This document shows, piece after piece, positions 9,628-56,178 of a stretch of DNA of 64,000 nucleotides (position 1 is the first letter of the stretch; each line of letters opens with the position of its first letter). The notes beneath the pieces were generated by a model. The model was not told where the DNA came from. It worked only from the letters and a program-made list of their open reading frames with translations, and made no database searches. The position numbers were made by a program, and so were the translations under genes. This stretch comes from a virus: IMG/VR virus record IMGVR_UViG_3300045988_175028; one strand, given 5' to 3'.

Positions 9628-9812
9628 CTTTCTTCCTCCTTTGCTTCTAAGTAGCCTTTCAGATGTTCATCTTTTAGAGCTTGTTGGATATTCTTCCAAG
9701 CATCTGGAAAAAGAGAACCAATCAAAAAACTAAAACTAATTTCTTCACCATCAAAATTCTCAATAACTTCTGAAATTTTTTGAAAGCGCTCTTTTGAAAC
9801 TGTCATTTCCAT
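9624..9812 (-). CDS. hypothetical small acidic protein
   Basis: Start overlaps the upstream gene end. Confidence 0.45.
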   Translation of the reverse strand: MEMTVSKERFQKISEVIENFDGEEISFSFLIGSLFPDAWKNIQQALKDEHLKGYLEAKEEES

Positions 9813-13261: not shown

Positions 13262-14399
13262 TTATAATTTTCCTCCCATCAAAAATTACTTTTCTCCATT
13301 CATAAAACATTCTAAAGGCTTCATAGTTATTGAATCTAACATATTGAAAAGCATCCCTGGCTTCTTGGGTAGAAGGCCATCTTCGCTGATATTTTGCTCG
13401 CCAGCATTTCCAAGGATCTTGATGTTTAGCTATCCATTTACAATAATCAACGATTCTATCTGCTTTATAATTATAGTATTTTGACCTTATAAACCAATTC
13501 AAGACTTCAAAAAGATTTTGTAATTCAGGAGTTGTGATTAGTGTGTCATTATATATAAGTGAAATTTTTATCCAATGTCTATGGAAAAATAGAACTTGAG
13601 GAAGAATTAAAGGCAAGCGATTCATCAAAAAGTCATTCTCATCCTTACAACCTTCATCAACTTTATAAGACATTTGACTTGTTCCTAAATCCCATAAGTA
13701 TCTCATTTTATCACATAAGACGTCATCCATAAAATTATTATATTGTATTCCAAAAACATCTTCCATAATAGGTAGTCGTAACCATTTTAGTAGTTCTTCC
13801 TCCGAAGATACCTGTATAGGAAATTTAGTTCCAAGTGAATATGGTTTTACAGTATTGCTATTTAGATTATTCCGAGAATACAACCAGTCTTTTATAAAAT
13901 CATAAGCGCCATCAACAGCACCAGCATCGTAATCGTGAAGAATAAGACATCTTGTGTTTTGAAACATATAGTCTTCTTTTTTTAGCCAAGGGTCTATATT
14001 TTTCCCATCAATTGAAAGACGAATATGCGCGCTCCATAAAATTCTCTTGAAAAGGCGCGCATCATCCTTTATACGGCAAAAATTAGGAGAATGACGCTCA
14101 TAGATTGAAAAATCAGGAATAGTTTGTTCGATTTCAAGAGGAAGAGGTTTATATGGACCTGGCTGTATCGCACGCCCTCCAAGAATTATCTTATCATCAA
14201 ATAACTCTCGTGGATAAATTCCATCATCATAATCTTTTCTTACATAAAGAGTAGAGAAGCGTTCTGGCGCCAACTCTGGTGCCAGAACGGAAATTTCTCT
14301 TTTTTTCTTATGATAAGCACAAAGTTTCGCACATTCAAGATTAGGGAGGACATTTTGGTAAGTAAAAAAATCGTAATCATGTACTCCAATTATTCCCAT
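13248..14399 (-). CDS. hypothetical protein
   Basis: 383-aa ORF. ATGA overlap with the polymerase stop. Confidence 0.6.
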   Translation of the reverse strand: MGIIGVHDYDFFTYQNVLPNLECAKLCAYHKKKREISVLAPELAPERFSTLYVRKDYDDGIYPRELFDDKIILGGRAIQPGPYKPLPLEIEQTIPDFSIYERHSPNFCRIKDDARLFKRILWSAHIRLSIDGKNIDPWLKKEDYMFQNTRCLILHDYDAGAVDGAYDFIKDWLYSRNNLNSNTVKPYSLGTKFPIQVSSEEELLKWLRLPIMEDVFGIQYNNFMDDVLCDKMRYLWDLGTSQMSYKVDEGCKDENDFLMNRLPLILPQVLFFHRHWIKISLIYNDTLITTPELQNLFEVLNWFIRSKYYNYKADRIVDYCKWIAKHQDPWKCWRAKYQRRWPSTQEARDAFQYVRFNNYEAFRMFYEWRKVIFDGRKIINDSN

Positions 14400-15856
14400 T
14401 ACTGTTCAATCCTCCCTTGACTTTCTACTGTGCCGTCTTTGTTTATTTTTGTGATTAGCTCAATGCCATGATAAGGAGTATTCTTATATTTTTTCATAAC
14501 GAATTCGTTATCTCTCCTGATGCCTGTAATAATAATTTTGTTTCCTCTACTGAAGATACTTTTTTCAATGACGTGTTTTTTGCCATCGGCACCCCGTTCG
14601 CTAATTTGTTTGTCATAATAAGAAAAGACTTCACCAAAAACTCTTACATTTACGACTCCCTCTCTAGTCAAAACCGTTACCATTTTTTTGCTCTTATCTC
14701 TATCAAGAACAGTACCACAAATGCGATGAATCTTAAAAAGTGGGATTTTCTTTCCTTTTATTTCAATTATTCTATCAATTTCAGGCTGTTCGTTTAGTTC
14801 AAAGAAGTTTGAAAAACCACATAGTCGATAATTGACATCTTGAAGTTCGTGCTGATGAAAATAACAAGAAACGCTGTCCATCTCCCATTTACTAATAGAC
14901 CCAAGACAATATTTATTCCAAACATCAGACATTAGCCTATTATTTACATCATTTAGTAATAATTGGTTATTATCTTTTATGAAAGGACGAATAATATCCA
15001 TCTGAGCTTTATAAATTTTATCCCACTTGGTTTGAGGAATCGCAAATCCACTTTCAGTGTCATAAGGTTCTAGAAAATCAACATCAAAATTCTTTTCATA
15101 AAAGTTCATTGTGATGTTATCTAATCCATAATACTGAGTTCCTACTTTCATCTTTTTTAGATATTTATTGAAATTGAAGACCCGTCTTTGAAGGTCATAC
15201 TCATCAGGAATCAAACCAAAATCAATCAACATCTTCATATTTTGGAGAGTTATCCGTTTTTTCGTATCACTGATTTCTGAGACATAATATTGCATTAAAC
15301 TCTCTCTATTACTAAATTCATCAAAAGCACCAGCTTTTATAAGATTTATCATTTGAGGCTTGTTGATTTTTACTTTTGAGAGAAAATCATCAATTGAGGA
15401 GTAGGGGCGATTTTCAATTATTGATTTTACAATATCTTCGCCTACTTTTACAATTCCGCTCATACCAAAACGAATTATTGACTTTTCTACATCGGGAGAG
15501 AAAGTATAGGTAGATTTGTTTATATCTGGCGGCGCGACATCAATTCCCGACATCTTCATTTTTCCAATGGCAGAGCTAATTTTTCCATAATTTGTGGTTT
15601 TAGTTTTTTTCTTTTTCTTTTTCTCTTTTACGACTTCTTCATCATCTTCATCATCGTCGTTATCATCCTCAAATTCTTCTATACAATCAACATAAGTTTC
15701 TTCAATAGTATCATCTTCCTCGTCTTCTTCTACTCCTTCATTTCCTCCACTATCGCTAATAAGACAAGCGCAATTCCAAAAAATAATCGGAAATTGATAG
15801 GCTAAATTCATTTCTTGAAGAGCGATTAGCGAATAAGCCAAGGTATGTGATGCATT
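14399..15856 (-). CDS. dnaE: DNA polymerase III alpha-like, last exon
   Basis: Starts NASHTLAYSLIALQ, completing the GYGF|N(K)SH motif. Acidic linker and OB-fold-like C-terminus. Confidence 0.8.
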   Translation of the reverse strand, partial: NASHTLAYSLIALQEMNLAYQFPIIFWNCACLISDSGGNEGVEEDEEDDTIEETYVDCIEEFEDDNDDDEDDEEVVKEKKKKKKTKTTNYGKISSAIGKMKMSGIDVAPPDINKSTYTFSPDVEKSIIRFGMSGIVKVGEDIVKSIIENRPYSSIDDFLSKVKINKPQMINLIKAGAFDEFSNRESLMQYYVSEISDTKKRITLQNMKMLIDFGLIPDEYDLQRRVFNFNKYLKKMKVGTQYYGLDNITMNFYEKNFDVDFLEPYDTESGFAIPQTKWDKIYKAQMDIIRPFIKDNNQLLLNDVNNRLMSDVWNKYCLGSISKWEMDSVSCYFHQHELQDVNYRLCGFSNFFELNEQPEIDRIIEIKGKKIPLFKIHRICGTVLDRDKSKKMVTVLTREGVVNVRVFGEVFSYYDKQISERGADGKKHVIEKSIFSRGNKIIITGIRRDNEFVMKKYKNTPYHGIELITKINKDGTVESQGRIEQ

Positions 15857-16968
15857 CTTTACCACTCATGGTTTCCCATGCCGATTAAATCGTTGTGGTC
15901 TGGACTATACCATCATCCTTATCTAATAAGGCGTCACTATTATAGTCTCTGAACGTCTTTCTTAAATAATTATACTTTCTATTCATTCCAAAAGGTCTAT
16001 TATAAACAATTGCGATTAACTTTAATATATTATACTGATTTGCAGTTTCAATTCTATACAAACCGCTTTCAGACATTCTAATTGCGATATCATCCATGAA
16101 GAAATTATTTTTTAACACTTCTGTAATCCACATGGCAAAATCTTTAGACATCGTGCATATATAAAATTGCGCGCCGCCATAGGAAGTTTTAGAAACACAA
16201 CCATCACCGTCAATTATTCCTCGAATAATATAAGGTAAAAATTGTTTTTCTTCATCAAGAAGTTTTGGCGTTGGCAGAATAATTGATTTATTTGGAACAA
16301 TACCAAAACGTTCAACTTGTTTTGATATGCCAGGTATTGTAATTAAAACTCTATACCTGGTTTTGTGGATTCCATCATTATAACTTTTATAGTCAGTGCC
16401 AATCGTTTTTGCCACAAAGCTTATCGCGTCTTCGTCTGTCATATCTAATCCTAATCCATCTCTATCACTTAACACATATCCATCTGTTAGTAATAAACCA
16501 ACAAAATAAGCATCAAATGGAGAAGTTAATTTTTCTAAGGAGTAAACATAACCCCTGCGACTGTTTTGTGCCTCTTTTATTATTTCTTCATAATTCTCTG
16601 GATAATATTTTTTTACTTTGTCCGTTATTGATTTTTTGGTTTTATAACCATACTTATTCATTAGTTCTATAACGGAGGTCCCTTGTTTATATTCTTCAAC
16701 CAATTGTAGTTCTTGTTCTTTGGATAATTTTTTATATCCCATTGTATCTCACCTCTAATTATAAGTAACCTTTGAGATGAGAAAGCATATCATTTTAAGA
16801 AATTTCGCTGCGGATTATCCAATCTTTAATAATTTTACCATACCCGCACTTTTTCTGCGCGGCCGCTATATACGTTACCGTTACAGTTTGGTTATTAAAG
16901 CTCTAAGGAACTTCCCGCAATTTAAGTGATTTTTAACTATATGTTACCATATAGGGCTTCAATATTCT
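15857..16968 (-). mobile_element. group I intron in the polymerase gene
   Basis: P1: exon GGCUUU pairs with intron GAAGCC, with U.G at the splice site. P2: CUAUAUG-GUAA-CAUAUAG. AAUUGCGGGAAG...UCCGCAG forms P3. Intron ends ...GGUAAAG|AAU. Confidence 0.85.
15885..16742 (-). CDS. LAGLIDADG homing endonuclease (intron-encoded)
   Basis: FVGLLLTDGYV and IRGIIDGDGCV motifs. Confidence 0.85.
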   Translation of the reverse strand: MGYKKLSKEQELQLVEEYKQGTSVIELMNKYGYKTKKSITDKVKKYYPENYEEIIKEAQNSRRGYVYSLEKLTSPFDAYFVGLLLTDGYVLSDRDGLGLDMTDEDAISFVAKTIGTDYKSYNDGIHKTRYRVLITIPGISKQVERFGIVPNKSIILPTPKLLDEEKQFLPYIIRGIIDGDGCVSKTSYGGAQFYICTMSKDFAMWITEVLKNNFFMDDIAIRMSESGLYRIETANQYNILKLIAIVYNRPFGMNRKYNYLRKTFRDYNSDALLDKDDGIVQTTTI

Positions 16969-19488
16969 AAAGCCATAACCTTTACTCGTACAAACTAACA
17001 CATTCCAAACATACTTACAGAATTTTTCATCCAATCCTTTTTCTTTTATAATCCTGAAATATTCATCTTGTAATTCAAGAAAAGCTTTAGGATTTTTCTT
17101 TGCGATAGATTTTCTTAGCTTATCTGCCCAGGTAAGGCTGAAGCCTCCGCACTCAGGCAACTGAACTAACTCCATAAATTTTTCCTGAGACTCACAGATA
17201 CCATAAGAAATCTTTACTACTGGCTCAAGAATTTTCATTTCTTCTTTGGTAAGACCGTAATTCTCCATTTCTTTATACCACAAAGAAATATCATTTTTGA
17301 AACGAGCAAACTTATTTAGAGGTTGCTCGGCTCCTTTTTCTTGAGCCATCAAACGAATTACAGAATTCAAAACAGCCAAGTCATCTACTGATTGAGGATG
17401 AGTTAGCGCGATGCCACTAATTCCACTTTGCTTTTCCATTTGGAATAAGCTGGTGATTTTATGGTCCCATACCATCTTCCACATATCCGGTGCTGTTCGT
17501 TCTAAATTATAAATACCAATAACGCTTTCGTAGGTTTCTTTTAGAGTATCTTTCTTTTTAACATATCCATAATCAACTAGTAAATCTAGACAGTTATGAA
17601 TTTTATCCAACGCTTCTACTGATAATAAATCATACTTGATAAGTGATACATCCTCACACGCATGAAGGTCAAAAGCCGTAATGATGGTTCCATCTGGCGC
17701 GCGCATGAGTCCGGTTGAATTAGTAAAAGGTTCATCCACAAAGATTACTCCACCAGCATGGATTCCATACCCACAAATTAGTCCTTCAATTTTTTGAGCG
17801 ACTTCCCAAACTTCAGGATAATTCTCTGTCATTTCATATACAAATTGTTTGATTGGCTTCCAATCATTTTCAGTATCACCATACATACATTGAGATAAGG
17901 TTCGTAGCAATCCACGGTCAGAGGGAATCAATGAGGCTAGATAAGAAGCAATATCAACATCCACTCCCAAACCACGACAAGCCGTAAGAATTGCAGATTT
18001 AGACTTTTCTTGACGAAAAGTGGCAACATTTGAAACTCGATTATCTCCATAGACTTTTCGTAAATGATTTAGGACTTCTGCACGCCGGCCACCCTCAATA
18101 TCTACATCTACATCAAGTACTGAAACTCGATCTGGATTCAGAAATCTCCATCTAAAAGTTTTGGTAGTCTCTTGTAGAGGATTGATTTGAGTTATATTCA
18201 AAAGATAAAGTAGAATAAAACCTACTCCTGAACCTCTTCCTGGTCCAACCAACGTACCAGCTTTCCAACATTCCTCAATAATTCTTTGAAGATTTAGATA
18301 ATAGGCTGACCAATGTGCTTTATTTACATTAGAAGAAATCCATGTCATTTCAAGACAAGCATTGACCTCATCCCAAGTCTTTTGATTCCATAATTCTTGA
18401 GGCCCATCTTCTAGTGCCTCAACAATCATGCAAGCCAAAGCTCTATCACCTATATAATCAGACTCCACGAATGTTTTCAGATAAGGAATTCTTTCTATCC
18501 AACAATTTTGAACATAACTAATTTTAGGTTCTTTCCAAGGAAGCTGAGGAATATATAAAGGCTTTAGAAGACTATAATCCTCACACATATCTTTTATTTT
18601 TAGGATATTCCTATATGCTATTTGTAATTGCTCTTGTGAAAAATATCCAAAATAACTTTCGAGTTCTTCGGTATCCATTAGATAAGTCGTGGCATAGAAA
18701 TCATCTACTTCTCTATCACCATTCTGGGCATTTAGATAAGCTTTATGAATTGTTCTGTCTTCTTTCTTGAGATAGTGTGTATCCGTTGTGATAATATAAG
18801 GAATTTCAAACTCATTCGATAACTCAAAAAGTTTTTTATTGACGTAAATTTGGTCTTTATTATTACTGGGTTGCATTTCAAAAAAGAAATTTCCATGGCC
18901 AAATAAATTATCCATTTGGCTTATCCAGTTATAGATTTTTGGCATCAATTCTGGATTATCTTTTGCTTTTAGAAGTTGAGTGGGGAGACACCCTCCAAGG
19001 CAGGCTGTCGAGCCAATTACATGACCAGGTTCTGCGCCAATAATTTCAAATAAGTCATTATAATAAGTCGGAACTCGACGCATTCCTCGCGCCATATAAC
19101 TTCTCAACCAAGCGCGAGTAGAAATTTCACGAATCTGCTTATGACCAATAGCATCTTTGGCTAATAAGATAAAGTGATAGTATTTATCTTGTCCAGCTTT
19201 ATAATTTGAAGCATTGAGTCCATTTCGACAAAGGTAAATTTCATTTCCCTGAATGACTTTAAAGTTAGGATGCTTTTCTTTTATTTTTTTATAATATTTT
19301 TCAATTCTAACAGCTCCAGAGATACAATCGTGGTTAGTAATGGCTACCACTTCATGTCCCAGCTCAATGGCATAATCAATTAGGTCTTCAACTTTTATAA
19401 TACAATCGCGCAGTCGAAGATTTGAGGTCTCATCATGATTATGAATTAACTAATGTAAACTACCAGGATAATCCAGGATAGTTTTCAT
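16969..19488 (-). CDS. dnaE: DNA polymerase III alpha-like, upstream exon (PHP plus core), with an in-frame TAG at codon 13
   Basis: HNHDETS...AITNHD PHP motifs, then polymerase core up to ...SKGYGF. The only RBS+ATG is at 19488. TAG at 19450-52 is in frame. Confidence 0.7.
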
Positions 19489-19494
19489 TTTTCA

Positions 19495-20199
19495 TCACCT
19501 CTTTCTAAATTCATCACGAACATTGGCTTTATAATTATGTAAATATTTCCAAGTTCTACATCTATTTATATCATATAGTATATTTAAACTAATATTCTCA
19601 TCTCTTGATATTTGAGCTAATGAACGAGAGTCTTTTTCCAATAAGGCTATTATATATTTCGCTTTTTCTTCAGTAATTTTATTAGTTCCTAATTCACCCC
19701 GGCGAACGCTTCCTTGACTTTCTATTCTTATATTTTTCTTATAATGATGAAACCAAATCCAAGTATTGCATCTATTGATATCACTAATAGTATTATAATG
19801 AACCTTATACTGCCTTGCTATTTCTTGTATAGATAATTTTGTATTTTTTAATTTTTCGATAATCTCAAGGACTTCTTTTTCAGTAAGTTTCGCCCAAGGA
19901 TTTTCTTCACTTTTATACTCTTCTCCACCACGAGTTAAATTATATCCTTTTTCTCTTGAAGAATAACTTTTATAATATTCTATCCAATACTTTTCTCTTT
20001 CTTGCAATTCTTGAGGTTCACATTCTTCTATCACTTCAAAAGTAAAATCTTCTTCTCCTAATTTATGAAGTTCTTGGTCAAAATAAGAATATGGTGATGG
20101 CTGATTTAGATGAGCCCATTTTCTTTTTGTAATATCAGTACTTCTCCCTATATATATTTTGTTGTTTTGTTTATTTGTATATTTATATATACCTACCAT
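19495..20199 (-). CDS. GIY-YIG homing endonuclease (free-standing or intron-borne)
   Basis: VGIYKYTN...KIYIGRS...KRKWAHL plus repeated HTH-like modules. Confidence 0.8.
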   Translation of the reverse strand: MVGIYKYTNKQNNKIYIGRSTDITKRKWAHLNQPSPYSYFDQELHKLGEEDFTFEVIEECEPQELQEREKYWIEYYKSYSSREKGYNLTRGGEEYKSEENPWAKLTEKEVLEIIEKLKNTKLSIQEIARQYKVHYNTISDINRCNTWIWFHHYKKNIRIESQGSVRRGELGTNKITEEKAKYIIALLEKDSRSLAQISRDENISLNILYDINRCRTWKYLHNYKANVRDEFRKR

Positions 20200-33185: not shown

Positions 33186-33914
33186 TCACCCTCCAGCTTT
33201 CATATTTAATTGCTTTTGTGTCCCATACAAGTCGATATAAAATTTTTCTCTCTCACTCTGTTTATCTTTCGGAACTTCTTCTAAAATTTCAAAACTGTAA
33301 TTCCAAATTCCATTCCGCGCCATATGCGTATGAAGCGTTGAGCTGGCAACTTTTTCCATACCTAGCGCTGTCTGAATGTGAGCTTGCCATCTATCTTTAA
33401 AATTGACGGTTCGACCTATATAAGCCTCCCCAGTTGGAATATAAGTAATCTTATAAATTCCTCCAACTTTCTGCCCGACAACCCTCTTTATCATCTCATT
33501 TACAGGGCGCCGAGCAATACTCTCCCATATAACCTTAGGAAGAACTTCTTTATGACATAAATGATTTCTCATACTATCTAAAAGCTTTATATCTTCAATA
33601 TCATTTTGCGTAAGTTGGATTTTATAGAAATCTTCTTTTTCGATTAGTTCTCGTTCTCGTCGTATCGCTTCATTTATAGCATCGCGCCGACTACGAAAAT
33701 CTTCTAATTCTTTTTTAAGATAGGAAAGTTCATTATTATAACTTCTTTGTTTCGCTTGGAATTCTTGTTGGGCGTTTTCTTCTAAATTTTTGTATTTTTC
33801 TTCTAAAGCCTTTCGATATAATTTATCAGTATCAGATTTTAGTTTTTGAATTTTTCTTTGTTGTTTTAGTAAAAGAAAAATAATTCCTAAAATCAATAAA
33901 ACTAAAACTGCCAT
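33186..33914 (-). CDS. membrane-anchored coiled-coil protein with C-terminal GIY-YIG nuclease domain
   Basis: N-terminal TM segment LVLLILGIIFLLL. GGIYKITY...AYIGRT...RWQAH...E...N motifs. Confidence 0.65.
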   Translation of the reverse strand: MAVLVLLILGIIFLLLKQQRKIQKLKSDTDKLYRKALEEKYKNLEENAQQEFQAKQRSYNNELSYLKKELEDFRSRRDAINEAIRRERELIEKEDFYKIQLTQNDIEDIKLLDSMRNHLCHKEVLPKVIWESIARRPVNEMIKRVVGQKVGGIYKITYIPTGEAYIGRTVNFKDRWQAHIQTALGMEKVASSTLHTHMARNGIWNYSFEILEEVPKDKQSEREKFYIDLYGTQKQLNMKAGG

Positions 33915-46413: not shown

Positions 46414-46887
46414 TGGACTCCCACAAGTCCAGATAAACTGTGGACTCTCGTAGAGGATGGATTTATAGGATAAACTACCACCGGCGTCTAGTTTGGATGA
46501 TATGTGGCATAGTCATTTGTAGAGAGTATACTAAATAAAAACGAAAGCAATCCTATAATTGTATTTTGAAAACTAAACAGCTTGATTATAACAATAAGGC
46601 ACCTCGGTGAAGACACAAGACCATGTGGCCGAGACATTACCTTCGCTTTCGAGCGTACTACGCATTTCTACTCAGAGGGATACCTTTGTTTAGATGTGCT
46701 TCGGAGAGTCGTGAGATTTTCTGATTGCGGGAGGCTGAACCAACCGCTGTTAGAGGTAATGGTGCTGAAGTAATTGCTGATAAAAACATTGTCTCATTGC
46801 TATCGCAATAGAAAGCTAGGCGTCAAAAGCGTAAGCCGAATCCAAGTAAGGGTGTAGATTGGTCGTCTATACTAAACCTTGGAAAAG
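46414..46887 (+). ncRNA. ORF-free structured block 4
   Basis: 474 nt. Listed ORFs here lack an RBS and overlap on both strands. Confidence 0.3.
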
Positions 46888-47115
46888 ACCAATAAGGTAG
46901 TTTGCTGTGATGGTATGGAAACATACCTATAAGATGAGGTCAAAGTCCGAGTAGCTACAAGCAAGGACTCTTGTAAAAAAGAAATTACTAAGGAAATTTC
47001 TGAATGGTTAGTGAAAGGTGCGAGTAACCAATCTCGTATAGGAATTGATACTTTGTATCGGGGCAAGAACTTATAGAGCGACGGCTCTATGGGTCAGACT
47101 TGTCTCCCTATTGGT
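46888..47115 (+). ncRNA. candidate miniaturised RNase P RNA-like gene
   Basis: Closing helix ACCAATAAGG/CCCTATTGGT. A P3-like hairpin is followed by GAGGTCAAAGTCCGAG, GTGAAAGGTGCGAGTAAC, GGGGCAAGA and ATAGAGCGACGGCTCTATGGGTCAG. These appear in the same order as conserved regions CR-I, II, III and V of bacterial RNase P RNA. Confidence 0.4.
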
Positions 47116-47213
47116 TGAATATATCAGAAAATTATGGAGGTAGGGTGAAGGCCCGCCTTGTAGTTATAATCAAGTTATTTAGTTTTTATTTTATAAAAGA
47201 AGGGATTTTTAGT

Positions 47214-48281: not shown

Positions 48282-49106
48282 ATGAGTTATACTGGAATTT
48301 ACTACTTCTCTTTACCAGAAAATGATGATCTCGCACGGTTCTATGAAAATCCCAGCGAATTTGCAGATAGACTAAAAGAGAATCAATATTTAATTCTTGA
48401 AAATGATAAATATGAACCTATTGATTTTTATAAGAAAAGAAACGGTTGGCTTGAAAGAATTTCTTATCCAATTTTTGAAAGCCAATTTTGTGGGGTAATG
48501 AAACCTAGAAATCCTGAACAGAGATGTGCCATGGACCTTATTCATAGTGATGTCCCAATCAAGCTTATAACCGGCCCATTCGGTAGTGGCAAGACCTTCA
48601 CTATGGTTGAGGGAATGATGGAGGCTCTTCAAAAAAATAAATTCGAAAAAATTATTTTTATTCGAAACAACATCCAAGTAAGAGATACAGACGCACTCGG
48701 TGCCCTCCCTGGGGACGAGCTAGCGAAGACTCTTCCATATGTAATGCCTTTGGCTGACCACTGTGGAGGTATTGAAGGACTAAAGACTTTGATTGATACG
48801 GGCCGTCTTGAAGTTATTCCTCTTGGCTTTCTTCGCGGGCGTAGCATCCGTAATTCTATTCTTTATTCTATGGAAAGTGAAAACCTTACAAAAGAGCACA
48901 TTCAACTAATAATGGGCCGTATTGATGAAGGTTCTCAGCTTTGGATGGATGGAGACGTCAAGCAGAGAGACCGAAGTTCTTTTGAAAAAAGTCAGGGTCT
49001 TGAAACTATGATTGAAAGATTAGCTGGTAATTCAAATTTTGGATATGTAAAATTAGAGAAGTCTGAGCGCTCAGAGGTCGCGCGCATGGCAGATTTATTA
49101 GATTAA
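48282..49106 (+). CDS. phoH: PhoH-like ATPase
   Basis: ITGPFGSGKTF Walker A and PLGFLRGRS motif. Confidence 0.75.
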   Translation: MSYTGIYYFSLPENDDLARFYENPSEFADRLKENQYLILENDKYEPIDFYKKRNGWLERISYPIFESQFCGVMKPRNPEQRCAMDLIHSDVPIKLITGPFGSGKTFTMVEGMMEALQKNKFEKIIFIRNNIQVRDTDALGALPGDELAKTLPYVMPLADHCGGIEGLKTLIDTGRLEVIPLGFLRGRSIRNSILYSMESENLTKEHIQLIMGRIDEGSQLWMDGDVKQRDRSSFEKSQGLETMIERLAGNSNFGYVKLEKSERSEVARMADLLD

Positions 49107-49174
49107 CCAGGAGTTTTCCTGTTTATAATATATGGGAGGGCCTTGGCTCTCCCTAATTCTTTAGGTGATGAAGT

Positions 49175-50857
49175 ATGGCTACACCAAGTAAATTTAGAGA
49201 AGTATTAGATAGAAACAAAACGTTAGCTGATTGCTATGTTTATTATAAACGATTAGAGACTGATATAGATGATAACCCACAATTAGCAGTTGCAAATAGG
49301 AATTTGATAAAAGCTATTACAGATGGAGTTCAGTCAGTAGGAGCTAGTTATATAGGAGCTCAGCAATCAGTAGGAGTACTTCGTCGAATGGCGAAAAGTG
49401 AAGCTCAAAAAGAACAGCGATTACTAAATACGGTATTCAAGGTAAATGTTGTTGTTGATTGGGATGACAAGACTCAAGTAAAATCACTAATAGATACTTA
49501 TAATAGCTGCCTGAATCTAAAAGAAGTTTATGAAAGAAATTTGTTTCTTATAAAGAATTCTAATGGTGCTAAAGGGGTCTTTAGTTTCTTTGCTACTTAC
49601 TTTAGTAAAGTTTGGGATGAAAAGTGGCCCCATATGGCGGAAGACATAGCTCAGCATATTGATTTGAGCAAACCGCAAGAAACGGGGAAATATATCGGAA
49701 AAGTTATTGATGATAATATGTCAGATATTATTGTTCGAAGCTTAGAGCTGATGTTTTCGGCTAAAAATGAGTTGAAGTCAATGCCCGAAGAGATGCAAAA
49801 TGCTTATAATCTTTTTTTGACTAAAATTAGAGATTTGCAAACAGCAGGAAGTCTTGCTCAAAAAGTGTATAAAGCATATAATCTTGATAAGGTCAAAGAA
49901 TATATAGTAAGTCGGCTAACTGGTGATGATTTCAAAAAGCTAAAGAATGGTTTGAGCCGTTCAGAGATTGAAAATTCATGGAATAATAAAGGGTCTCAGC
50001 AGGCTGGTATCTTTTTTGAGCATTTAGTTGATACTATACAAGGAGAAATTGGAAGAGAATTAGCAAAAAGTAAAAATATACGAGTTGAGAATTTTCACCC
50101 TGGCTCATATGGCGCGACTTCAATTTCAGCAGATAATATAATGAGTATTGGAATAGATCCCACTCTAATAGAAAAAACTTTGGAAAAAGCTCGAAGTTCA
50201 GGTATGAAAAATCATATAGAAGCCTTTAATGAATTGGGAGAAAAGCTTAGTAATTTAAGAGATGGATTTCTTATTTATACGACAGATAAAAACTATACAC
50301 TAAATAAAAAGTTTGAAACTTATTTTGGCGGTTATGGCGCGAAGAATATAAGCGCACGCACTACATTAGATGTACTTACCCCAATAGTCAAAAATGCTAG
50401 AACCTTGGTCGGTATGGCCTTGCAGTTAGGAGAAGGCGCGCTAGCTAAGGAAAATGGTTTGATTGATGAAGAAGTTTTATCTCGGATGTTTGCTAAACAA
50501 ATAGCTTACTTTTTATTTGATGACCATCAAACAATTGGGGAAATTCAAAGAGATGTTGGTGCAAGATCAATTCACATGATGGATATGAATGGAGTAATGA
50601 TTCCTCTTTCCTTTTTTATCTCTCTTTTGGCAGATAGTATTCAGTATGGAATCATGAATCCAAAAAAGATTGCTCAGGTAAAATTTCATGCTCCTAAAAT
50701 TCTTTTTCCAACGATGGCGGAACAAAAAGCTTATACTCCAGATAAAAATGACCCTGAGAGCGCTTGGAGAAAACAAAAAGAATATGCTTTAGATGAAACT
50801 AAAATAGAATTTCGCTTCTTAGGTGGATTACGGGATATATTAAAAGAATATGTATAA
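49175..50857 (+). CDS. hypothetical 560-aa protein
   Basis: Long ORF followed by terminator CTCGTC-TTCG-GACGAG. Confidence 0.6.
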   Translation: MATPSKFREVLDRNKTLADCYVYYKRLETDIDDNPQLAVANRNLIKAITDGVQSVGASYIGAQQSVGVLRRMAKSEAQKEQRLLNTVFKVNVVVDWDDKTQVKSLIDTYNSCLNLKEVYERNLFLIKNSNGAKGVFSFFATYFSKVWDEKWPHMAEDIAQHIDLSKPQETGKYIGKVIDDNMSDIIVRSLELMFSAKNELKSMPEEMQNAYNLFLTKIRDLQTAGSLAQKVYKAYNLDKVKEYIVSRLTGDDFKKLKNGLSRSEIENSWNNKGSQQAGIFFEHLVDTIQGEIGRELAKSKNIRVENFHPGSYGATSISADNIMSIGIDPTLIEKTLEKARSSGMKNHIEAFNELGEKLSNLRDGFLIYTTDKNYTLNKKFETYFGGYGAKNISARTTLDVLTPIVKNARTLVGMALQLGEGALAKENGLIDEEVLSRMFAKQIAYFLFDDHQTIGEIQRDVGARSIHMMDMNGVMIPLSFFISLLADSIQYGIMNPKKIAQVKFHAPKILFPTMAEQKAYTPDKNDPESAWRKQKEYALDETKIEFRFLGGLRDILKEYV

Positions 50858-50862
50858 GATAA

Positions 50863-50888
50863 GGCTCGTCTTCGGACGAGTCTTTTCT
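50863..50888 (+). terminator. intrinsic terminator
   Basis: GGCTCGTC-TTCG-GACGAGTC plus T-run. Confidence 0.65.
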
Positions 50889-50897
50889 CTTTATAAT

Positions 50898-50926
50898 TTG
50901 AAAAATTCTTATATTTATAATATAAT
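50898..50926 (+). promoter_or_regulatory. consensus phage promoter
   Basis: TTGAAAAATTCTTATATTTATAATATAATATATATAGAAAGTGAGAAAGGAG. Confidence 0.65.
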
Positions 50927-50957
50927 ATATATAGAAAGTGAGAAAGGAGTAAATAAA

Positions 50958-51587
50958 ATGGATTTTCCCTCTCGTCAAACTATTCATGAGGTAGCGCAAG
51001 TTCTAAATGAATGGGGAATTACCGATTTCTTCAAAGGCACCTATAAGCAAAATAGTAATCGTTTCAATGTTTGGTGTTTGGAACTTTCCAAAAATACTAA
51101 CCTAAAAGTGTCGAATGGATGCACAAAAATTGTAGTGAAGTTTGGGGATGATGGTTGGGTTATAAAGATTCCTTATAAGACTGAAATCAATTATTGTCAT
51201 CGTGAAGCAGAAAATTACGCACGGGCTCATAAAGCTCATCTTACTAACTTTTTTGCTCCTTGTTATTTCTATGGAGTAATTGATGAAATTCCAATTTATC
51301 TACAAAGACTGGTAGATAAAGAAGATTCAACAATTACTAGTGAATGTTGGAATTTTGCATATAGCAACAATCCCCAGGAAAAGGAAGAGACTGATGAAGA
51401 TTATGCTGATAGAATCAGCAGCTATGTTGAAAATGATATGGATGATTATGAAGTAGTTGAGGCCATTATTGGAGAAAATCGAAAACTTTTTGATTTTATC
51501 TATGAAAATGATATCAATGACCTTCATAAAGGAAATTTTGGATATTTGAATGATGCACCGGTTATTTTTGATTATAGCGGTTTTTGA
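50958..51587 (+). CDS. kinase-fold (APH/choline-kinase-like) protein
   Basis: ATG 50958 after AAAGGAG. DINDLHKGNFGY resembles the HxDxxxxN catalytic loop. Confidence 0.4.
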   Translation: MDFPSRQTIHEVAQVLNEWGITDFFKGTYKQNSNRFNVWCLELSKNTNLKVSNGCTKIVVKFGDDGWVIKIPYKTEINYCHREAENYARAHKAHLTNFFAPCYFYGVIDEIPIYLQRLVDKEDSTITSECWNFAYSNNPQEKEETDEDYADRISSYVENDMDDYEVVEAIIGENRKLFDFIYENDINDLHKGNFGYLNDAPVIFDYSGF

Positions 51588-51607
51588 TAAGAAAGGAGAA
51601 TAAAAAA

Positions 51608-52051
51608 ATGAATTATGTCTATGTTAAGTTTAGTGGTACGGAGAAGAATTATGTCTATAAGACTAAGTTGAATCTCATTAAGAACGCGACCTATAAGATT
51701 GTTGCCGATGGGATTACAACCTATGCTAGTCCTGTCAAGGTCTGTTCTATTGTTCCTACTCGGCCTAATTTTGGCGGTATTATTCGTGAGATTACCACTG
51801 CCGAAATTATTACTGCTCCTCCTCGTCCTAAGGTAACGGCGAAGTTTGTTATCAATAAGGAAAAGGGTACGACTGTTGCTCTTTGGAAAGATGGAACTAA
51901 GACTATTGTGAAGTGTCAGACTGGGGATTCTTTTGATGCGGAGAAGGGAATCGCAATGTGTTTTATGAAGCGATACTTCAATAATCGTGGATGGTATAAT
52001 GAGTGGATGCGTGAGGTTCTGAAAGAGAATGGCTTGGCTGAAGAGAAGTGA
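51608..52051 (+). CDS. hypothetical protein
   Basis: ATG 51608 after GAAAGGAG. Confidence 0.55.
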   Translation: MNYVYVKFSGTEKNYVYKTKLNLIKNATYKIVADGITTYASPVKVCSIVPTRPNFGGIIREITTAEIITAPPRPKVTAKFVINKEKGTTVALWKDGTKTIVKCQTGDSFDAEKGIAMCFMKRYFNNRGWYNEWMREVLKENGLAEEK

Positions 52052-52195
52052 GGAAGGTTATTGCCTTCTTCACAACTGTAAGCTCGGTCGGCGCCAAGTA
52101 CATGAAAAATGTACGAATCCTCATCGAGTAGGTTGCACAGATGGAAAGAAATGTAAACATTTATTGGTTATAAGAAAGGGGATGAACACAAAATA

Positions 52196-53119
52196 ATGTC
52201 AGCATTAATTATGTTGATGGGACTTTCTGGTTCTGGAAAAAGCACTTTGGCAGAAGAATATGCTAAGCTGTCTGGTGGAAAAGTTTTTTCTTCTGACAAA
52301 ATTCGAGAAGAACTTTTTGGAAATGAAAACAATCAAACTCATAATGGAGAAGTTTTCAACGAGCTTCATAAACGAATTAAAAAAGCTTTAAGGAAGAACG
52401 AAATTTGTATTTATGATGCTACGAATTTAAACAGAAATAAAAGAATTAGCTTTCTTCGTACTCTTTCAGATATCACTTGTGAAAAAATTTGCATGATGGT
52501 TGCAACTCCAATTGAAATTTGTATTAAAAGAGACCAAAACAGAAGCAGAAAAGTTGGGAAAAAGGTTATTCATCGACAAGCTACTCAATTTCAAATTCCT
52601 TTAGATTATGAAGGCTGGGATAGTATTATGATTTATAACAATCCCAATTTTTCTGCCTCAGATTATAAAAAGCTAATTGATTATTTTCCAAAAGCAGTTA
52701 TGCCACATGACTGCACACCATGGCATACAGAGAGCGTACAAGAACATCTTAATAGAACTTTAATGGAGATGTCTTTGCGTACTAATGAATATTATTTGCT
52801 TCTTGCATCACGATATCATGATATTGGAAAATTCTATACTAAGACTTTTTATGATAGAAGCAAAAAGAAGACTACTGATAAAGCTCATTACTATGGACAT
52901 GAAAACTATGGAGCCTATCTTTTTATGACCTCCTATGATTTTGTTACAAGTGGAAGTCTCAAACCAGCTTTTGAACAGGCATTGTTGCTTATTGCTCTTC
53001 ATATGGAATTTGGTTCAAGAAAAAGTAAAGTTTTAAAAGAAATTCCAAAAAGTGCTCGTGAAGCCTTAGAGCTTTTAAATGAATGTGATATGCTTGGAAG
53101 TGTGAGAGGAGAGGACTAA
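52196..53119 (+). CDS. bifunctional polynucleotide 5'-kinase (P-loop) plus HD-domain phosphoesterase (RNA end-healing)
   Basis: LMGLSGSGKST Walker A and YDATNL at the N-terminus. C-terminal H...HD (RYHDIGK)...H pattern. Confidence 0.65.
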   Translation: MSALIMLMGLSGSGKSTLAEEYAKLSGGKVFSSDKIREELFGNENNQTHNGEVFNELHKRIKKALRKNEICIYDATNLNRNKRISFLRTLSDITCEKICMMVATPIEICIKRDQNRSRKVGKKVIHRQATQFQIPLDYEGWDSIMIYNNPNFSASDYKKLIDYFPKAVMPHDCTPWHTESVQEHLNRTLMEMSLRTNEYYLLLASRYHDIGKFYTKTFYDRSKKKTTDKAHYYGHENYGAYLFMTSYDFVTSGSLKPAFEQALLLIALHMEFGSRKSKVLKEIPKSAREALELLNECDMLGSVRGED

Positions 53120-53464
53120 ATGAAATTTTTTGGAACTTATGGTTGTAGTATGACCAACTCTATTTATAATATTGCTATTGAAGCAAGGGATGCTCAAAGC
53201 GCGCTAAAGTTTTGTTATGATAGTGCAGTAGAGGATAGAGATAGTTATGAAGGGCTTTATGGAGTTGAAACTTGGGAAGAGATTGCTGAGAATGAGGGTT
53301 TTATTATAGGGGAAATGTCTCAAGCGGAAGAGAACTATATTGATGACTTGTATGTTGACTCTATTGAGAGTGATATTATCTATAATATAGAGCCTTTTGA
53401 CATAAATAATGAGGAGCATCTAGAGATACTGAAAGAACAAGAATGTGAATTTTGGCAGGCGTAG
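53120..53464 (+). CDS. hypothetical acidic protein
   Basis: ATG directly after the upstream stop. Confidence 0.5.
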   Translation: MKFFGTYGCSMTNSIYNIAIEARDAQSALKFCYDSAVEDRDSYEGLYGVETWEEIAENEGFIIGEMSQAEENYIDDLYVDSIESDIIYNIEPFDINNEEHLEILKEQECEFWQA

Positions 53465-53477
53465 AAAGGAGGCTAAA

Positions 53478-54563
53478 ATGGAACTTCAAAAGTTTCTAAT
53501 GGAGTATAAAGACGATTGGGAGGAAATCTTGGATAGAGAGCCTTATTGCCTAAAATGGAACAAGTGGAAAGGTTTCGTAAGTTTCAAGTATAACCAAATT
53601 CAGTCTGATTTTTCTAATCCAATTGTCCGCGAAGCCAGAGGAGCAGTCTTTGTGGAAGAAACTTGGGAGTGTGTATCTAGAGCATTTGATAAGTTCTTCA
53701 ACTATGGGGAACCTAATGCTTCTGCAGTTGATTGGACCACCGCGCGGATTATGGAGAAAATAGACGGGTCGCTGATGCGTCTTTTCTACTGGAAAGGCGA
53801 ATGGTATCTAGTTACCAATTCTGGTATCGATGCATATTCTGCACCGACTGGTAATGTGAATTATCCGACTTTTGGGCGTATTTTTGAGGAAGGTCTTCGG
53901 AATTTGGGATATAAAAGTTTAGAGGATTTTTGTAATAAACTAAACAAGTATCGGACTTATATGTTTGAGTTGGTTAGTCCTTATACTCGTGTAGTAATTC
54001 CCTATGAAAGTATTGGAATTTATTATCTTGGAGAGCGCAGAATGATAGATTATCAGGAGTTTTATTGTCCTCCTGTTTTTCCAGAGTTTTGTCATCCTAA
54101 ACTTTATAACTGTTCTAATCTTTTTGATTTGATTAGAATGGCGCAAGAGCTTCCTTGGGATAAAGAGGGCTATGTTGTATGCGATAAAAACTTCAATCGT
54201 ATCAAAGTTAAGTCTCCTCAGTATGTTCTTGCTCACTACGTCCGCAATAATAACGTAATTACAGAAGAGCGCCTAATGGAAGTAATCCTAAAAGGAGAAA
54301 TTGAAGAGTTTTCTTGCTACGCAAGTGAATATCTTCCCAAATTACAGGAACTTCAGAAGAGAAAATCTACTTTACAAGCAGAGGCTGAACTCCTTCGTTC
54401 TCTTCTCCAGTCCCAGTTCCATTTTACCTCCCGAAAGGAGTTCGCCTCTACTGTAAATAAAATTTCTAATCCAGTAATTCGCCAGTTTTGTTTTAGTGAT
54501 AAGACTTGGGAAGATATGACCAAAGATTGGTCTGCAAAAAAGTGGGTTGAGAAATTGAAGTAA
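53478..54563 (+). CDS. ATP-dependent RNA ligase
   Basis: ATG 53478 after AAAGGAGG. IMEKIDGSL (KxDG adenylation site), FELVSP and GYVV motifs. Confidence 0.65.
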   Translation: MELQKFLMEYKDDWEEILDREPYCLKWNKWKGFVSFKYNQIQSDFSNPIVREARGAVFVEETWECVSRAFDKFFNYGEPNASAVDWTTARIMEKIDGSLMRLFYWKGEWYLVTNSGIDAYSAPTGNVNYPTFGRIFEEGLRNLGYKSLEDFCNKLNKYRTYMFELVSPYTRVVIPYESIGIYYLGERRMIDYQEFYCPPVFPEFCHPKLYNCSNLFDLIRMAQELPWDKEGYVVCDKNFNRIKVKSPQYVLAHYVRNNNVITEERLMEVILKGEIEEFSCYASEYLPKLQELQKRKSTLQAEAELLRSLLQSQFHFTSRKEFASTVNKISNPVIRQFCFSDKTWEDMTKDWSAKKWVEKLK

Positions 54564-54591
54564 AAGATAAAACTGAAGGAGGATAAGTCTT

Positions 54592-55134
54592 ATGACACGT
54601 AAAAACTTAGTTCTCCTGTTGGCAATTATCTCATTTATCTGCCTGGGTTTTATTGCCCAGGCTAATTTTTTTATTACAAAAATTGATGCTATTGAAAGAG
54701 AAAATTCTAACTTGTCAGCAGAGAATACTAGTAAAGAGCAACAAATCCAAGAACTTGAGGAACGCAATCGCGCCTTAGAAGAAGAACTTCAAACTAAAAT
54801 AGTTTATTTTGAGGAAGAAGAAATTCTAGCAAAACTTCTATGGTGTGAAGCAGGAAATCAATCTTGGGAAGGGCAGGTATATACTTGTTCTGCTATTCTA
54901 AATTATTGTGAAAGAAACAATACCTCAATTTGGGATAGCGCACATAATATAAATGCTTTTGAGCCTGCACCATATGTTGATGACGCTGAACCAACAGCGA
55001 CACAATATGAGGTTATTTATTATGTATTGAATGGAGGGAGAATTCCTGATATTTGTTGGTTTAGAACCGGTCAATATCATGATTTTGGAACTCCAGTTGC
55101 AAAAGTTGGCGACCATTACTTTTCAAAGCCATAA
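54592..55134 (+). CDS. SleB-type cell-wall hydrolase with N-terminal signal-anchor
   Basis: TM segment LVLLLAIISFICLGFI, coiled coil, and LAKLLWCEAGNQSWEGQ...SAILN motif. Confidence 0.55.
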   Translation: MTRKNLVLLLAIISFICLGFIAQANFFITKIDAIERENSNLSAENTSKEQQIQELEERNRALEEELQTKIVYFEEEEILAKLLWCEAGNQSWEGQVYTCSAILNYCERNNTSIWDSAHNINAFEPAPYVDDAEPTATQYEVIYYVLNGGRIPDICWFRTGQYHDFGTPVAKVGDHYFSKP

Positions 55135-55135
55135 G

Positions 55136-55174
55136 AAAAGACCCTACACCTTAGAAGTGTAGGGTCTTTTTTTT
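55136..55174. terminator. bidirectional intrinsic terminator
   Basis: GACCCTACAC/GTGTAGGGTC plus T8. Confidence 0.75.
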
Positions 55175-55466
55175 ACTTTGTCAGAAGATTCCAAAGGTCA
55201 TCTATTGTTTTTAGAGGAATATCATTCCCATTTTCTGTTACAGTGCCTGGCTTCCATTTTTCTCCAAAGTTTAGTTCCCACATCCAGTAACCAATCCAAT
55301 CACACTTATCATCAAACTGGGCCTTCAGATATTTTGTAATCTCACTTTCAATTTCCATAACAGGACTATTTACAAAATCAATACCATAGTCTTTATATAA
55401 ATTACAAATATACTCACTATGATTTCTTACTGCATTGATAAGTTCTGAAAAATTCTCTTTGGTCAT
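55173..55466 (-). CDS. hypothetical protein
   Basis: Lone minus-strand ORF between terminators. GAGGAA RBS. Confidence 0.5.
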   Translation of the reverse strand: MTKENFSELINAVRNHSEYICNLYKDYGIDFVNSPVMEIESEITKYLKAQFDDKCDWIGYWMWELNFGEKWKPGTVTENGNDIPLKTIDDLWNLLTK

Positions 55467-55638
55467 AAATAATTCCTCGCTCTTTATAAATTCTTTATAT
55501 ATTTATTATAGCAGAAAATTCGACTTTTTCAAGTTTTCACTAAAAAGTGAGGGGAAGAAAGTTTCTTTTCTAAAATCTTGAAAAGAGGTTGAATAGTTTT
55601 TACTTATAATTTGAGGAATGAGTAAGGAGGAATTTTAT

Positions 55639-56178
55639 ATGCGATTACTTGATGAACGCACCTACGCATTCCAATGGGATAGCAATATCTATGTTGTTCT
55701 ACCAAAAGCAAACGTAGGTGACGAAGTCCATTTTGCTCATCGGAAGGATAAAAAATCATTAGTAGTAATAGCAAAAGAGATTGACACAACCGTGGTCGCA
55801 ATGGTTCCTAACTTGCTGTTACAAAAAGCCGGCTTTATTCAGATTTATCATTTTATAACAGATGAAAAAGGAAATAGAACTGTAAATAGAGAAGAATTAA
55901 AAGTCCTTGAAAAAGAGAAACCTGATGACTATTTATATGAAGAATCTCAGGTCTTATCTTGGGAATATTTAGATAAAAGAATTACGGCTCTTGAAAAAGG
56001 TGGCACGGGTTCAGGAGGTATTGGAACAGAAACTACTGTTGGTGGAGTAAAAAGTTCTAATGAACCTAATAAGATAAAAATTCTTGAAGATGGAACAATG
56101 GAAGTCAATCCGATTTCTTTTGAGAAGCTATATACTGAAGAGACAGGTGATGTGGTTATCTCAGGAGGAGGGGCGTAA
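55639..56178 (+). CDS. hypothetical structural-module protein
   Basis: ATG 55639 after AAGGAGG. Confidence 0.55.
   Translation: MRLLDERTYAFQWDSNIYVVLPKANVGDEVHFAHRKDKKSLVVIAKEIDTTVVAMVPNLLLQKAGFIQIYHFITDEKGNRTVNREELKVLEKEKPDDYLYEESQVLSWEYLDKRITALEKGGTGSGGIGTETTVGGVKSSNEPNKIKILEDGTMEVNPISFEKLYTEETGDVVISGGGA

Follow-up and report, generated by a model that had tools for sequence, protein, structure and literature searches.

A 64,000-nucleotide stretch of viral DNA (IMG/VR record IMGVR_UViG_3300045988_175028; hereafter the window) carries two neighboring genes for enzymes of RNA repair, a polynucleotide kinase–HD fusion (Pnk-HD) and an RNA ligase of the Rnl1 family, together with a tRNA array in which three genes are interrupted in the anticodon loop by small tRNA-like inserts. 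The five features at the center of this analysis, with the sources that define them, are listed below (nt, nucleotides).

40863-41011, plus strand: tRNA-Ile(UAU), split at 34/35 by a 72-nt mini-tRNA insert at 40898-40969 (TATCGCA...TGCGATA-G-CCA); ARAGORN and sister alleles
41147-41286, plus strand: tRNA-Thr(UGU), split at 35/36 by a 65-nt mini-tRNA insert at 41181-41245 (GGTAGTT...AATTACT-A-CAA); ARAGORN, sister alleles and Rfam
43223-43358, plus strand: tRNA-Lys(UUU), split at 35/36 by a 61-nt mini-tRNA insert at 43257-43317 (GGGGAAG...CTTCTCC-A-CCA); ARAGORN, sister alleles and Rfam
52196-53119, plus strand: Pnk-HD, N-terminal 5'-OH polynucleotide kinase and C-terminal HD phosphoesterase; Pfam, PHROG, PDB and Foldseek
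53478-54563, plus strand: Rnl1-family ATP-dependent RNA ligase, for end sealing; Pfam, PHROG and PDB alignment

The Pnk-HD open reading frame (ORF) encodes 307 amino acids, in which a kinase domain (residues 4-134) precedes an HD domain (residues 177-298). Residues 4-134 match Pfam AAA_33 (E 2e-23), the protein matches PHROG 505 'polynucleotide kinase' (E 3.5e-21) and among solved structures the kinase domain of Clostridium thermocellum Pnkp comes closest (4gp7, E 7e-18). The match of residues 177-276 to Pfam HD is slightly below the 22-bit cut-off (21.0 bits, E 4e-4), and PF01966 is precomputed on several homologues; Pfam detected no HAD-type (DxDxT) 3'-phosphatase in the protein, the C-terminal domain being HD. 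An AlphaFold model built from 25 homologues (predicted local distance difference test, pLDDT, 94) retrieved C. thermocellum Pnkp (4gp6, 4mde) at the top of a Foldseek search, followed by mammalian PNKP, the fungal Trl1 kinase and T4 Pnkp; the kinase domain dominates these whole-model matches, which carry no information about the HD domain. Across the 25 homologues (40-84% identity), the invariant residues are G9, G14 and K15 of the P-loop GLSGSGKST, S32-S33-D34, R37, R116 and R118 in the kinase, and H177, H184, H208-D209, H235, H269 and D298 in the HD domain. They include the P-loop, the catalytic Asp after strand 2 (D34) and the lid arginines (R116, R118) of a kinase, and the metal-site pattern H...HD...H...H...D of an HD domain (H184, H208-D209, H235, H269, D298). 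The ORF at 52196-53119 is predicted to encode an enzyme that joins a 5'-OH polynucleotide kinase to an HD phosphoesterase at its C-terminus.

The ligase ORF encodes 361 amino acids, scores 57 bits against Pfam RNA_lig_T4_1 (cut-off 28.3 bits, E 3e-15) and matches PHROG 562 (T4 gp63/Rnl1, E 6e-45); T4 Rnl1 itself (2c5u) is the closest solved structure (E 1e-8). The segments EARGAVF, DKFFN, MEKIDGS, FELVSP, EGYV and KVKS align with ECRGIMF, EKFFN, TKEDGS, FEFVAP, EGYV and KIKS of the T4 enzyme. The PHROG profile spans residues 31-340 and the alignment with T4 Rnl1 stops at 283; the last ~80 residues are too divergent for a comparison with the C-terminal domain by which this enzyme family is directed to breaks in tRNA anticodon loops. 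We place the true start at the ATG at 53478 rather than at the GTG at 53445, because an AAGGAGG ribosome-binding site lies 6 nt upstream of the former. Its product is predicted to be an Rnl1-family RNA ligase in which no catalytic motif is missing, and the family matches of both ORFs are far beyond chance. The first-pass annotation of this DNA, made from the sequence alone, had described a P-loop Pnk-like N-terminus joined to an HD C-terminus and, in the downstream ORF, a KxDG ligase adenylation motif (MEKIDGS), while allowing that homology searches might show the ORFs to be unrelated to the Pnk, HD or Rnl families. Those searches were run and the Pnk, HD and Rnl1 assignments all hold, the kinase-HD fusion through Pfam, PHROG, 4gp7 and Foldseek and the ligase through Pfam, PHROG and 2c5u.

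By default, ARAGORN reports 11 tRNAs in the window; its intron detection adds three, each with an anticodon-loop insert of 61-72 nt. We compared the tRNA arrays of 13 related viral contigs, 12 of which contain tRNAs. Because several sister phage contigs have uninterrupted versions of these tRNA bodies, the boundaries of the inserts are fixed to the nucleotide. The loop halves around the inserts read CTT and ATAA (Ile), CTTG and TAA (Thr), and CTTT and TAA (Lys), and the predicted spliced junctions join ...GAGCACCCAACTT to ATAATTGGGAGG... in tRNA-Ile and ...GTAGCCTTT to TAAGCTATTGG... in tRNA-Lys. Removing the inserts in silico yields canonical Ile(UAU), Thr(UGU) or Lys(UUU) tRNAs from every distinct interrupted allele (17/17), and each sampled array holds one copy of each of these tRNAs, interrupted or intact but never both. 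The earlier proposal that three phage tRNAs are interrupted in the anticodon loop is therefore borne out by ARAGORN intron detection and by the intact sister alleles, and the three are plausible substrates of the cassette formed by the two enzymes.

Aligned with the intact alleles, each insert spans a small tRNA-like RNA precisely, with nucleotide +1 at one end and nucleotide 76 at the other. Its 5' end is the first nucleotide of a 7-base-pair (bp) acceptor-like stem and its 3' end lies 4 nt past that stem, the tails being G-CCA (Ile), A-CAA (Thr) and A-CCA (Lys). A 5-bp T-arm-like hairpin with a 7-nt loop stacks on the 3' strand of the stem, like a tRNA acceptor/T-arm minihelix, to form a coaxial helix of 12 bp. 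Two of the inserts score as tRNA above the Rfam gathering threshold, the match in the Thr insert covering 41181-41242. Such a helix is among the features that RNase P uses. Bacterial RNase P also favors a U at -1, a G at +1 and an NCCA tail, and each of these three is found in three of the first four insert families. In the Ile insert family, compensatory double changes occur in six of the seven acceptor pairs and in one T-stem pair, with none broken; since pairs change on both sides without disruption, the RNA structure appears to be under selection. Across all types the inserts measure 46-85 nt and occupy different sites (32/33, 34/35 and 35/36), a variation which argues that the insert, rather than the tRNA that houses it, sets the cut sites.

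Several further properties of the inserts stand apart. The Lys insert (43257-43317) matches the joined ends of the Rfam tmRNA model (24.9 bits, E 4e-7); it has G3:U70 and A73-CCA, the alanine identity set, and resembles the tRNA-like domain of tmRNA. From these sequence features, it might be aminoacylated or bind SmpB. An unusual T-loop, GGCAGNA, is common to several insert types.

Rfam returned only tRNA and tmRNA-end matches on the inserts and no ribozyme. We rejected a self-splicing group I intron, whose core usually exceeds 200 nt, and a small-ribozyme reading fails on size, geometry and Rfam. A bulge-helix-bulge intron was likewise rejected: the junction forms a 3-nt by 8-nt internal loop beside a 7-bp helix with a 4-nt tail, and the sites are not fixed. 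Given the size of the inserts and the lack of a ribozyme match, self-splicing is unlikely.

Nine or ten insert types, which interrupt Ile, Thr, Lys, Asn, Gln, Leu and suppressor tRNAs, were found in four confirmed phage lineages, and two more lineages hold additional copies (comparison loci are designated by L numbers). Beyond those of the window, they include a 56-nt type in another tRNA-Lys, an 85-nt type in the tRNA-Asn of L054 (3826-3986), inserts of 75/76 nt related to the Ile insert in phages of about 150 kilobases (kb), a 46-nt type at 32/33 in an amber-suppressor tRNA(CUA), and 49-nt and 47-nt inserts in the tRNA-Gln and tRNA-Leu of L167 (5640-9170), where 4/17 tRNAs are interrupted. 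The mini-tRNA introns recorded outside the window include those at 7770-7902 of L025, at 1844-1995 of L092 and, in the CUA suppressor lineage, at 6521-6660 of L117. The 61-nt Lys insert is identical in all copies found, although these sit in three tRNA-Lys bodies that differ from one another at most positions of the acceptor stem. In the lineage of L038 and L040, the D and anticodon arms beside this insert are identical to the L007 type and the rest of the tRNA is different, a pattern that looks like a co-conversion tract. Insert presence varies among near-identical phages, and a blastn search with the split Ile and Thr genes turned up nothing resembling the inserts in any phage isolate in GenBank. 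Judged from these alignments, the inserts constitute a putative class of mobile mini-tRNA introns in phage tRNA anticodon loops. The array of L038 (834-7226) and that of L040, in which the identical Lys insert lies, also include CUA and UUA suppressor tRNAs, which suggests that this phage may reassign stop codons.

The two enzyme genes lie within a compact gene cluster, whose remaining parts are as follows.

50898-50926, plus strand: phage promoter TTGAAA-N17-TATAAT followed by ATATATAGAAAG, at the operon head; motif
50958-51587, plus strand: small protein with a protein-kinase-like fold, first operon gene (phrog_4301); motifs, AlphaFold2 (AF2) and Foldseek
51584-52196, plus strand: two small overlapping ORFs, 51584-52051 and 52029-52196; no Pfam match
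53120-53464, plus strand: acidic ORF of 114 amino acids between Pnk-HD and ligase; no family match (Pfam, PHROG)
54592-55173, plus strand: last operon ORF (54592-55134, 180 amino acids, N-terminal hydrophobic segment, phrog_17417) and terminator; PHROG

A terminator-like hairpin (50861-50884) lies just 5' of the promoter and a strong terminator hairpin (55133-55173) closes the cluster; between promoter and terminator the ORFs are tightly packed and some overlap. The stop of the ORF at 52029-52196 overlaps the Pnk-HD start codon, and the acidic ORF begins directly after the Pnk-HD stop. On this layout, both enzymes belong to one predicted operon. The extended form of its promoter, TTGAAA-N17-TATAAT-ATATAxAxAAAG, recurs four times within the tRNA array (42161, 43453, 43644 and 46284), and this shared motif suggests that the cassette and the array are probably under common regulation. 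The first gene product, of roughly 210 amino acids, has an invariant VIK Lys and Glu and the motifs INDLHxGN and DYSG; its AF2 model (pLDDT 87) gives weak Foldseek matches, all to kinase-like folds and including the tRNA 2'-kinase ArkI. Homologues of the phrog_4301 type adjoin Pnk-HD in at least six other lineages (L034, L050, L053/L054, L056, L106 and the L112 group).

Four lineages allowed the surroundings of the interrupted tRNAs to be assessed, and in each of them an RNA ligase gene and a Pnk-HD gene lie no more than about 2-12 kb away. The clade of the window has introns in 10/14 genomes and the cassette in 14/14, the window included. An Asn intron accompanies Rnl1 and Pnk-HD in the L054 lineage, the intron of the suppressor-tRNA(CUA) lineage lies 2.2 kb upstream of Rnl1 and Pnk-HD, and the ~150-kb lineage has an Ile intron beside Pnk-HD, a phrog_968 ligase, a nucleotidyltransferase and a Thg1-like gene. 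Two of the four, the suppressor lineage among them, were also recovered by a search that started from the inserts. Some RNA ligase must rejoin the split tRNAs, because tRNA-shaped inserts cannot plausibly self-splice. Among the 48 window ORFs scanned with Pfam we found no other RNA-joining enzyme, no nuclease candidate for cutting the inserts (EndA likewise gave no match), no Tpt1/KptA and no methyltransferase-HIT genes, and Rfam found no phage-encoded RNase P RNA. As far as sequence can tell, the window offers one candidate with suitable chemistry for the rejoining, the phage Rnl1.

The two ORFs may form a heal-and-seal RNA repair module whose primary work is tRNA repair and whose second job is to join intron-split tRNAs, a proposal that we find as easy to believe as to doubt. 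The primary role is probably the repair of tRNAs cut by host anticodon nucleases. Pnk-HD would phosphorylate 5'-OH RNA ends while its HD domain would remove 2',3'-cyclic or 3'-phosphates, and the Rnl1-type ligase would join 3'-OH to 5'-phosphate ends where tRNA anticodon loops are broken, like T4 Pnkp/Rnl1. For the second job, that the cassette ligase acts as exon ligase for the mini-tRNA introns is, we infer, the best available explanation, held with slightly less than even conviction. The fuller proposal is held with similar conviction: the inserts would be previously undescribed mobile tRNA introns excised by host RNase P and a 3' endonuclease and rejoined by the phage ligase, with Pnk-HD acting if healing is needed. 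Host RNase P would cut at insert position +1 and leave a 5' exon with a 3'-OH. An endonuclease would then cut after insert nucleotide 76; this may be an RNase Z-like enzyme, yielding a 5'-phosphate, or a cyclizing nuclease, in which case Pnk-HD would heal the ends. The tRNA halves would be held together through the acceptor, D and anticodon stems, and Rnl1 would seal the remaining nick in the anticodon loop. The upstream fragment of an RNase P cut ends in a 3'-OH, which an ATP-dependent Rnl-type ligase can seal and host RtcB cannot.

A number of observations weigh against this proposal. Every tRNA is intact in four of the 14 cassette-bearing clade genomes (177369, 179000, 180318 and the ENA scaffold of L033), which implies that the cassette predates the inserts and is independent of them; on this distribution, the module appears ancestral in the clade and older than the inserts. 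The co-occurrence is partly by construction, since three of the four lineages came from a Pnk-HD search and most of the loci were selected through Pnk-HD. Among the contigs recovered through their inserts alone, L038 and L040 (12-17 kb) and L167 (9.4 kb of a 155-kb contig) show no cassette over lengths too short to judge, and a further protein search did not retrieve contig 122718. The Thr insert ends in ACAA rather than NCCA, and one insert, in L089, may lack CCA altogether. RNase Z of the B. subtilis type is inhibited by CCA, and exonucleolytic 3' trimming cannot release an intact 3' exon; the Thermotoga enzyme cuts right after CCA, and we know of no Firmicute enzyme established to cut right after an encoded CCA while leaving the downstream RNA intact. 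The 3' cut therefore has no established enzyme. If both cuts leave a 3'-OH and a 5'-phosphate, Pnk-HD would have no role in splicing. The two enzymes also seem to have separate histories within the clade, because its Pnk-HD alleles differ at up to half of their residues and the ligases are 82-94% identical. Across loci L001-L012 and L033, where Pnk-HD lies at about 8700-9640 and the ligase at 10001-11077, three groups of Pnk-HD alleles can be told apart, 88-97%, 52-54% and 48-49% identical to that of the window and each next to a ligase of 82-94% identity, which points to mosaic replacement of the healing enzyme.

These observations bear on both mechanistic claims of the first-pass annotation. 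Its idea that tRNA end-processing sets the insert ends agrees with their coincidence with a mature 5' end and nucleotide 76, and is weakened by the one CAA tail and by a 3' cut for which no Firmicute enzyme is established. Its view of the enzyme pair as the ligation machinery for split tRNAs gains from their proximity in all four lineages, yet the association is not specific, given the four clade genomes with intact tRNAs only and the Tsamsa-like phages described below.

The cassette might instead serve repair only, mending tRNAs cut by anticodon nucleases, with the inserts handled by other enzymes or not at all. We consider this unlikely, although every clade member has the cassette whether or not it has inserts, Tsamsa-like phages have it with no tRNA in the 91 kb examined, Pnk-HD also adjoins Thg1-like tRNA repair genes, and the literature describes Rnl1 with a kinase/phosphoesterase as counter-defence repair (PMC7824862). 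Repair alone leaves the rejoining of the split tRNAs unexplained, and wherever the surroundings could be assessed, introns occur only near such cassettes. It also has to contend with the 3'-OH left by RNase P, which is unusable by host RtcB.

The presence of a kinase and an HD domain alongside the ligase would be accounted for by a Trl1-like route, in which a metal-independent endonuclease or a self-cleaving insert generates a 2',3'-cyclic phosphate and a 5'-OH, so that HD, kinase and ligase are all needed. This route fits the operon-linked kinase-like protein and two RNAs of the tRNA array, a twister-like element and a RAGATH-33 RNA, whose motif class takes its name from an association with self-cleaving ribozymes. 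It nevertheless appears improbable: the tRNA-like shape and the exact +1/76 boundaries favor tRNA end-processing enzymes, Pfam revealed no candidate nuclease in the ORFs scanned and no ribozyme model matches the inserts. Lastly, the interrupted genes could be dead, the inserts being selfish DNA or the mini-tRNAs the real products, with no ligation and a merely coincidental nearness of the cassette. The inserts are indeed mobile (the identical 61-nt insert occurs in three tRNA-Lys bodies with co-converted flanks), homing endonucleases are abundant in the genome and phage tRNAs are often dispensable. We nevertheless regard this reading as very improbable, since all 17 interrupted alleles form perfect cloverleaves, no array retains a spare intact copy, and the inserts are confined to anticodon loops, with compensatory changes that keep an RNA structure for which selfish DNA alone would have no need. 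We retain, tentatively, excision by tRNA end-processing enzymes followed by sealing by the phage ligase.

The repair cassette recurs in many gut-phage contigs. Its gene pair is, by sequence, a known kind of heal-and-seal cassette in a variant with kinase-HD order and an Rnl1 partner; Rnl1 or Rnl2 together with polynucleotide kinases and HAD, calcineurin-like or HD phosphoesterases has been described as phage counter-defence RNA repair (PMC7824862). Pnk-HD matches 415 stretches in the entire viral collection and so is rare overall; 290 homologues are in the protein database, many of them from contigs 100-175 kb long. By ligase profile, an Rnl1 gene lies within a locus of roughly 20 kb in 32/90 loci screened, 31 of them among the 84 loci selected through Pnk-HD. 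Full-length homologues (31-35% identity) occur beside annotated RNA/tRNA ligase genes in Tsamsa-like Bacillus phages and a Lysinibacillus phage. In Tsamsa, gp174 (Rnl1) overlaps gp175 (Pnk-HD), and the 91 kb examined, having no tRNA, says nothing on introns. Window positions 49000-56000 matched no GenBank phage by megablast. Enterocloster phage PMBT24, whose DNA polymerase (about 38% identity) places it among the nearest isolates, was intended as a control without the cassette but is uninformative, having no tRNA, no Pnk-HD and no Rnl1. The host of the window's phage is probably a gut Firmicute. The phages of ~150 kb present a larger tRNA repair island in which Pnk-HD is flanked by a phrog_968 RNA ligase, an RlaP-like nucleotidyltransferase and a Thg1-like enzyme (L197, 7433-9591 and 17771-18652; L034, 13520-14308); this ligase has a KMHG motif and was identified via PHROG 968 alone, with no Pfam or PDB sequence match.

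Other elements of the window were recorded alongside. The tRNA array ends in a full-length ROOL RNA (46579-47173, 302 bits) and contains a RAGATH-33 RNA above threshold (44650-44762, 139 bits) and a twister-P1-like element (43741-43829, E 4e-7) that scores 43 bits against a threshold of 67.2. Self-cleaving ribozymes leave 5'-OH and cyclic-phosphate ends, which are substrates of Pnk-HD. An odd tRNA-Thr(GGU) call at 45008-45077 is 70 nt long, has no encoded CCA and has a mismatched anticodon stem. An HNH endonuclease ORF (44105-44602) and a 78-nt tRNA-Leu(CAA) allele have replaced the 5' part of the 82-nt Leu allele of relatives (44005-44637), leaving a 3' remnant at 44603-44637. The same arrangement occurs in L011, and the locus looks like allele replacement driven by a homing endonuclease in the tRNA array. 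Free-standing homing endonucleases are numerous, with two LAGLIDADG and two GIY-YIG ORFs (11742-12569, 15885-16742, 19495-20199 and 33186-33914), and a LAGLIDADG ORF separates the two parts (16933-19350 and 14399-15865) of a split DNA polymerase III alpha gene.

The gene pair by itself is one more phage RNA repair cassette, and its interest lies in the split tRNAs that surround it. To our knowledge, protein-dependent tRNA splicing is considered archaeal or eukaryotic, and the known bacterial and phage tRNA introns are all self-splicing; we found no description in the literature of tRNA-like introns in phage tRNAs or of splicing by RNase P and a ligase. If the proposed mechanism is correct, a protein-dependent tRNA splicing pathway would exist in the bacterial world, and phage ligases of the Rnl1 type would gain a second role besides counter-defence. 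RNA repair cassettes would then be what lets mini-tRNA introns exist, which would explain the tolerance of a new class of mobile introns. It would also follow that default tRNA gene finders overlook functional phage tRNAs, as default ARAGORN missed all three here.

T4 Pnkp and Rnl1 repair tRNA-Lys cleaved by PrrC. The window's cassette resembles this pair in comprising two phage proteins, an Rnl1-family ligase with all motifs and a P-loop 5'-kinase whose catalytic Asp and Arg residues are those of T4 Pnkp, and in its expected substrate, the tRNA anticodon loop. It differs in that the 3'-healing domain is HD rather than the HAD (DxDxT) of T4, that the kinase is nearest to the bacterial C. thermocellum type and that the host is probably a gut Firmicute. 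As summarized in PMC6097658, HD-Pnk of Runella slithyformis unites an HD phosphoesterase with a 5'-OH kinase beside an ATP-dependent ligase (Munir and Shuman 2017). As far as that summary describes the Runella system, the two share both activities and a gene placed beside, or overlapping, that of an ATP-dependent ligase (compare Tsamsa), whereas here the domain order is the reverse of the N-terminal HD and C-terminal kinase of Runella, the ligase is of the Rnl1 type and neither Tpt1 nor methyltransferase-HIT was seen. Fungal and plant Trl1 has the same three activities and, if the splicing role is correct, the same task of joining exons in the anticodon loop. Trl1, however, is a single polypeptide that uses a 2H cyclic phosphodiesterase and requires a 2'-phosphate together with Tpt1, after TSEN has cut at a fixed position; the window has two proteins, an HD domain, no Tpt1 and cut sites apparently defined by the insert.

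In MALAT1-mascRNA and in mitochondrial tRNA punctuation, an embedded tRNA-like structure is cut by RNase P on its 5' side and by an endonuclease on its 3' side. The proposed mechanism likewise has a tRNA-like structure defining both cut sites; the flanks there are not rejoined, whereas here they are tRNA halves that require ligation. With archaeal bulge-helix-bulge introns (EndA and RtcB) and bacterial group I introns, the inserts share their location in tRNA anticodon loops and, with the group I introns, a presence that varies between close relatives. They depart from the archaeal introns in a geometry that makes a bulge-helix-bulge impossible, and from group I introns in being far too small and without a ribozyme-model match.

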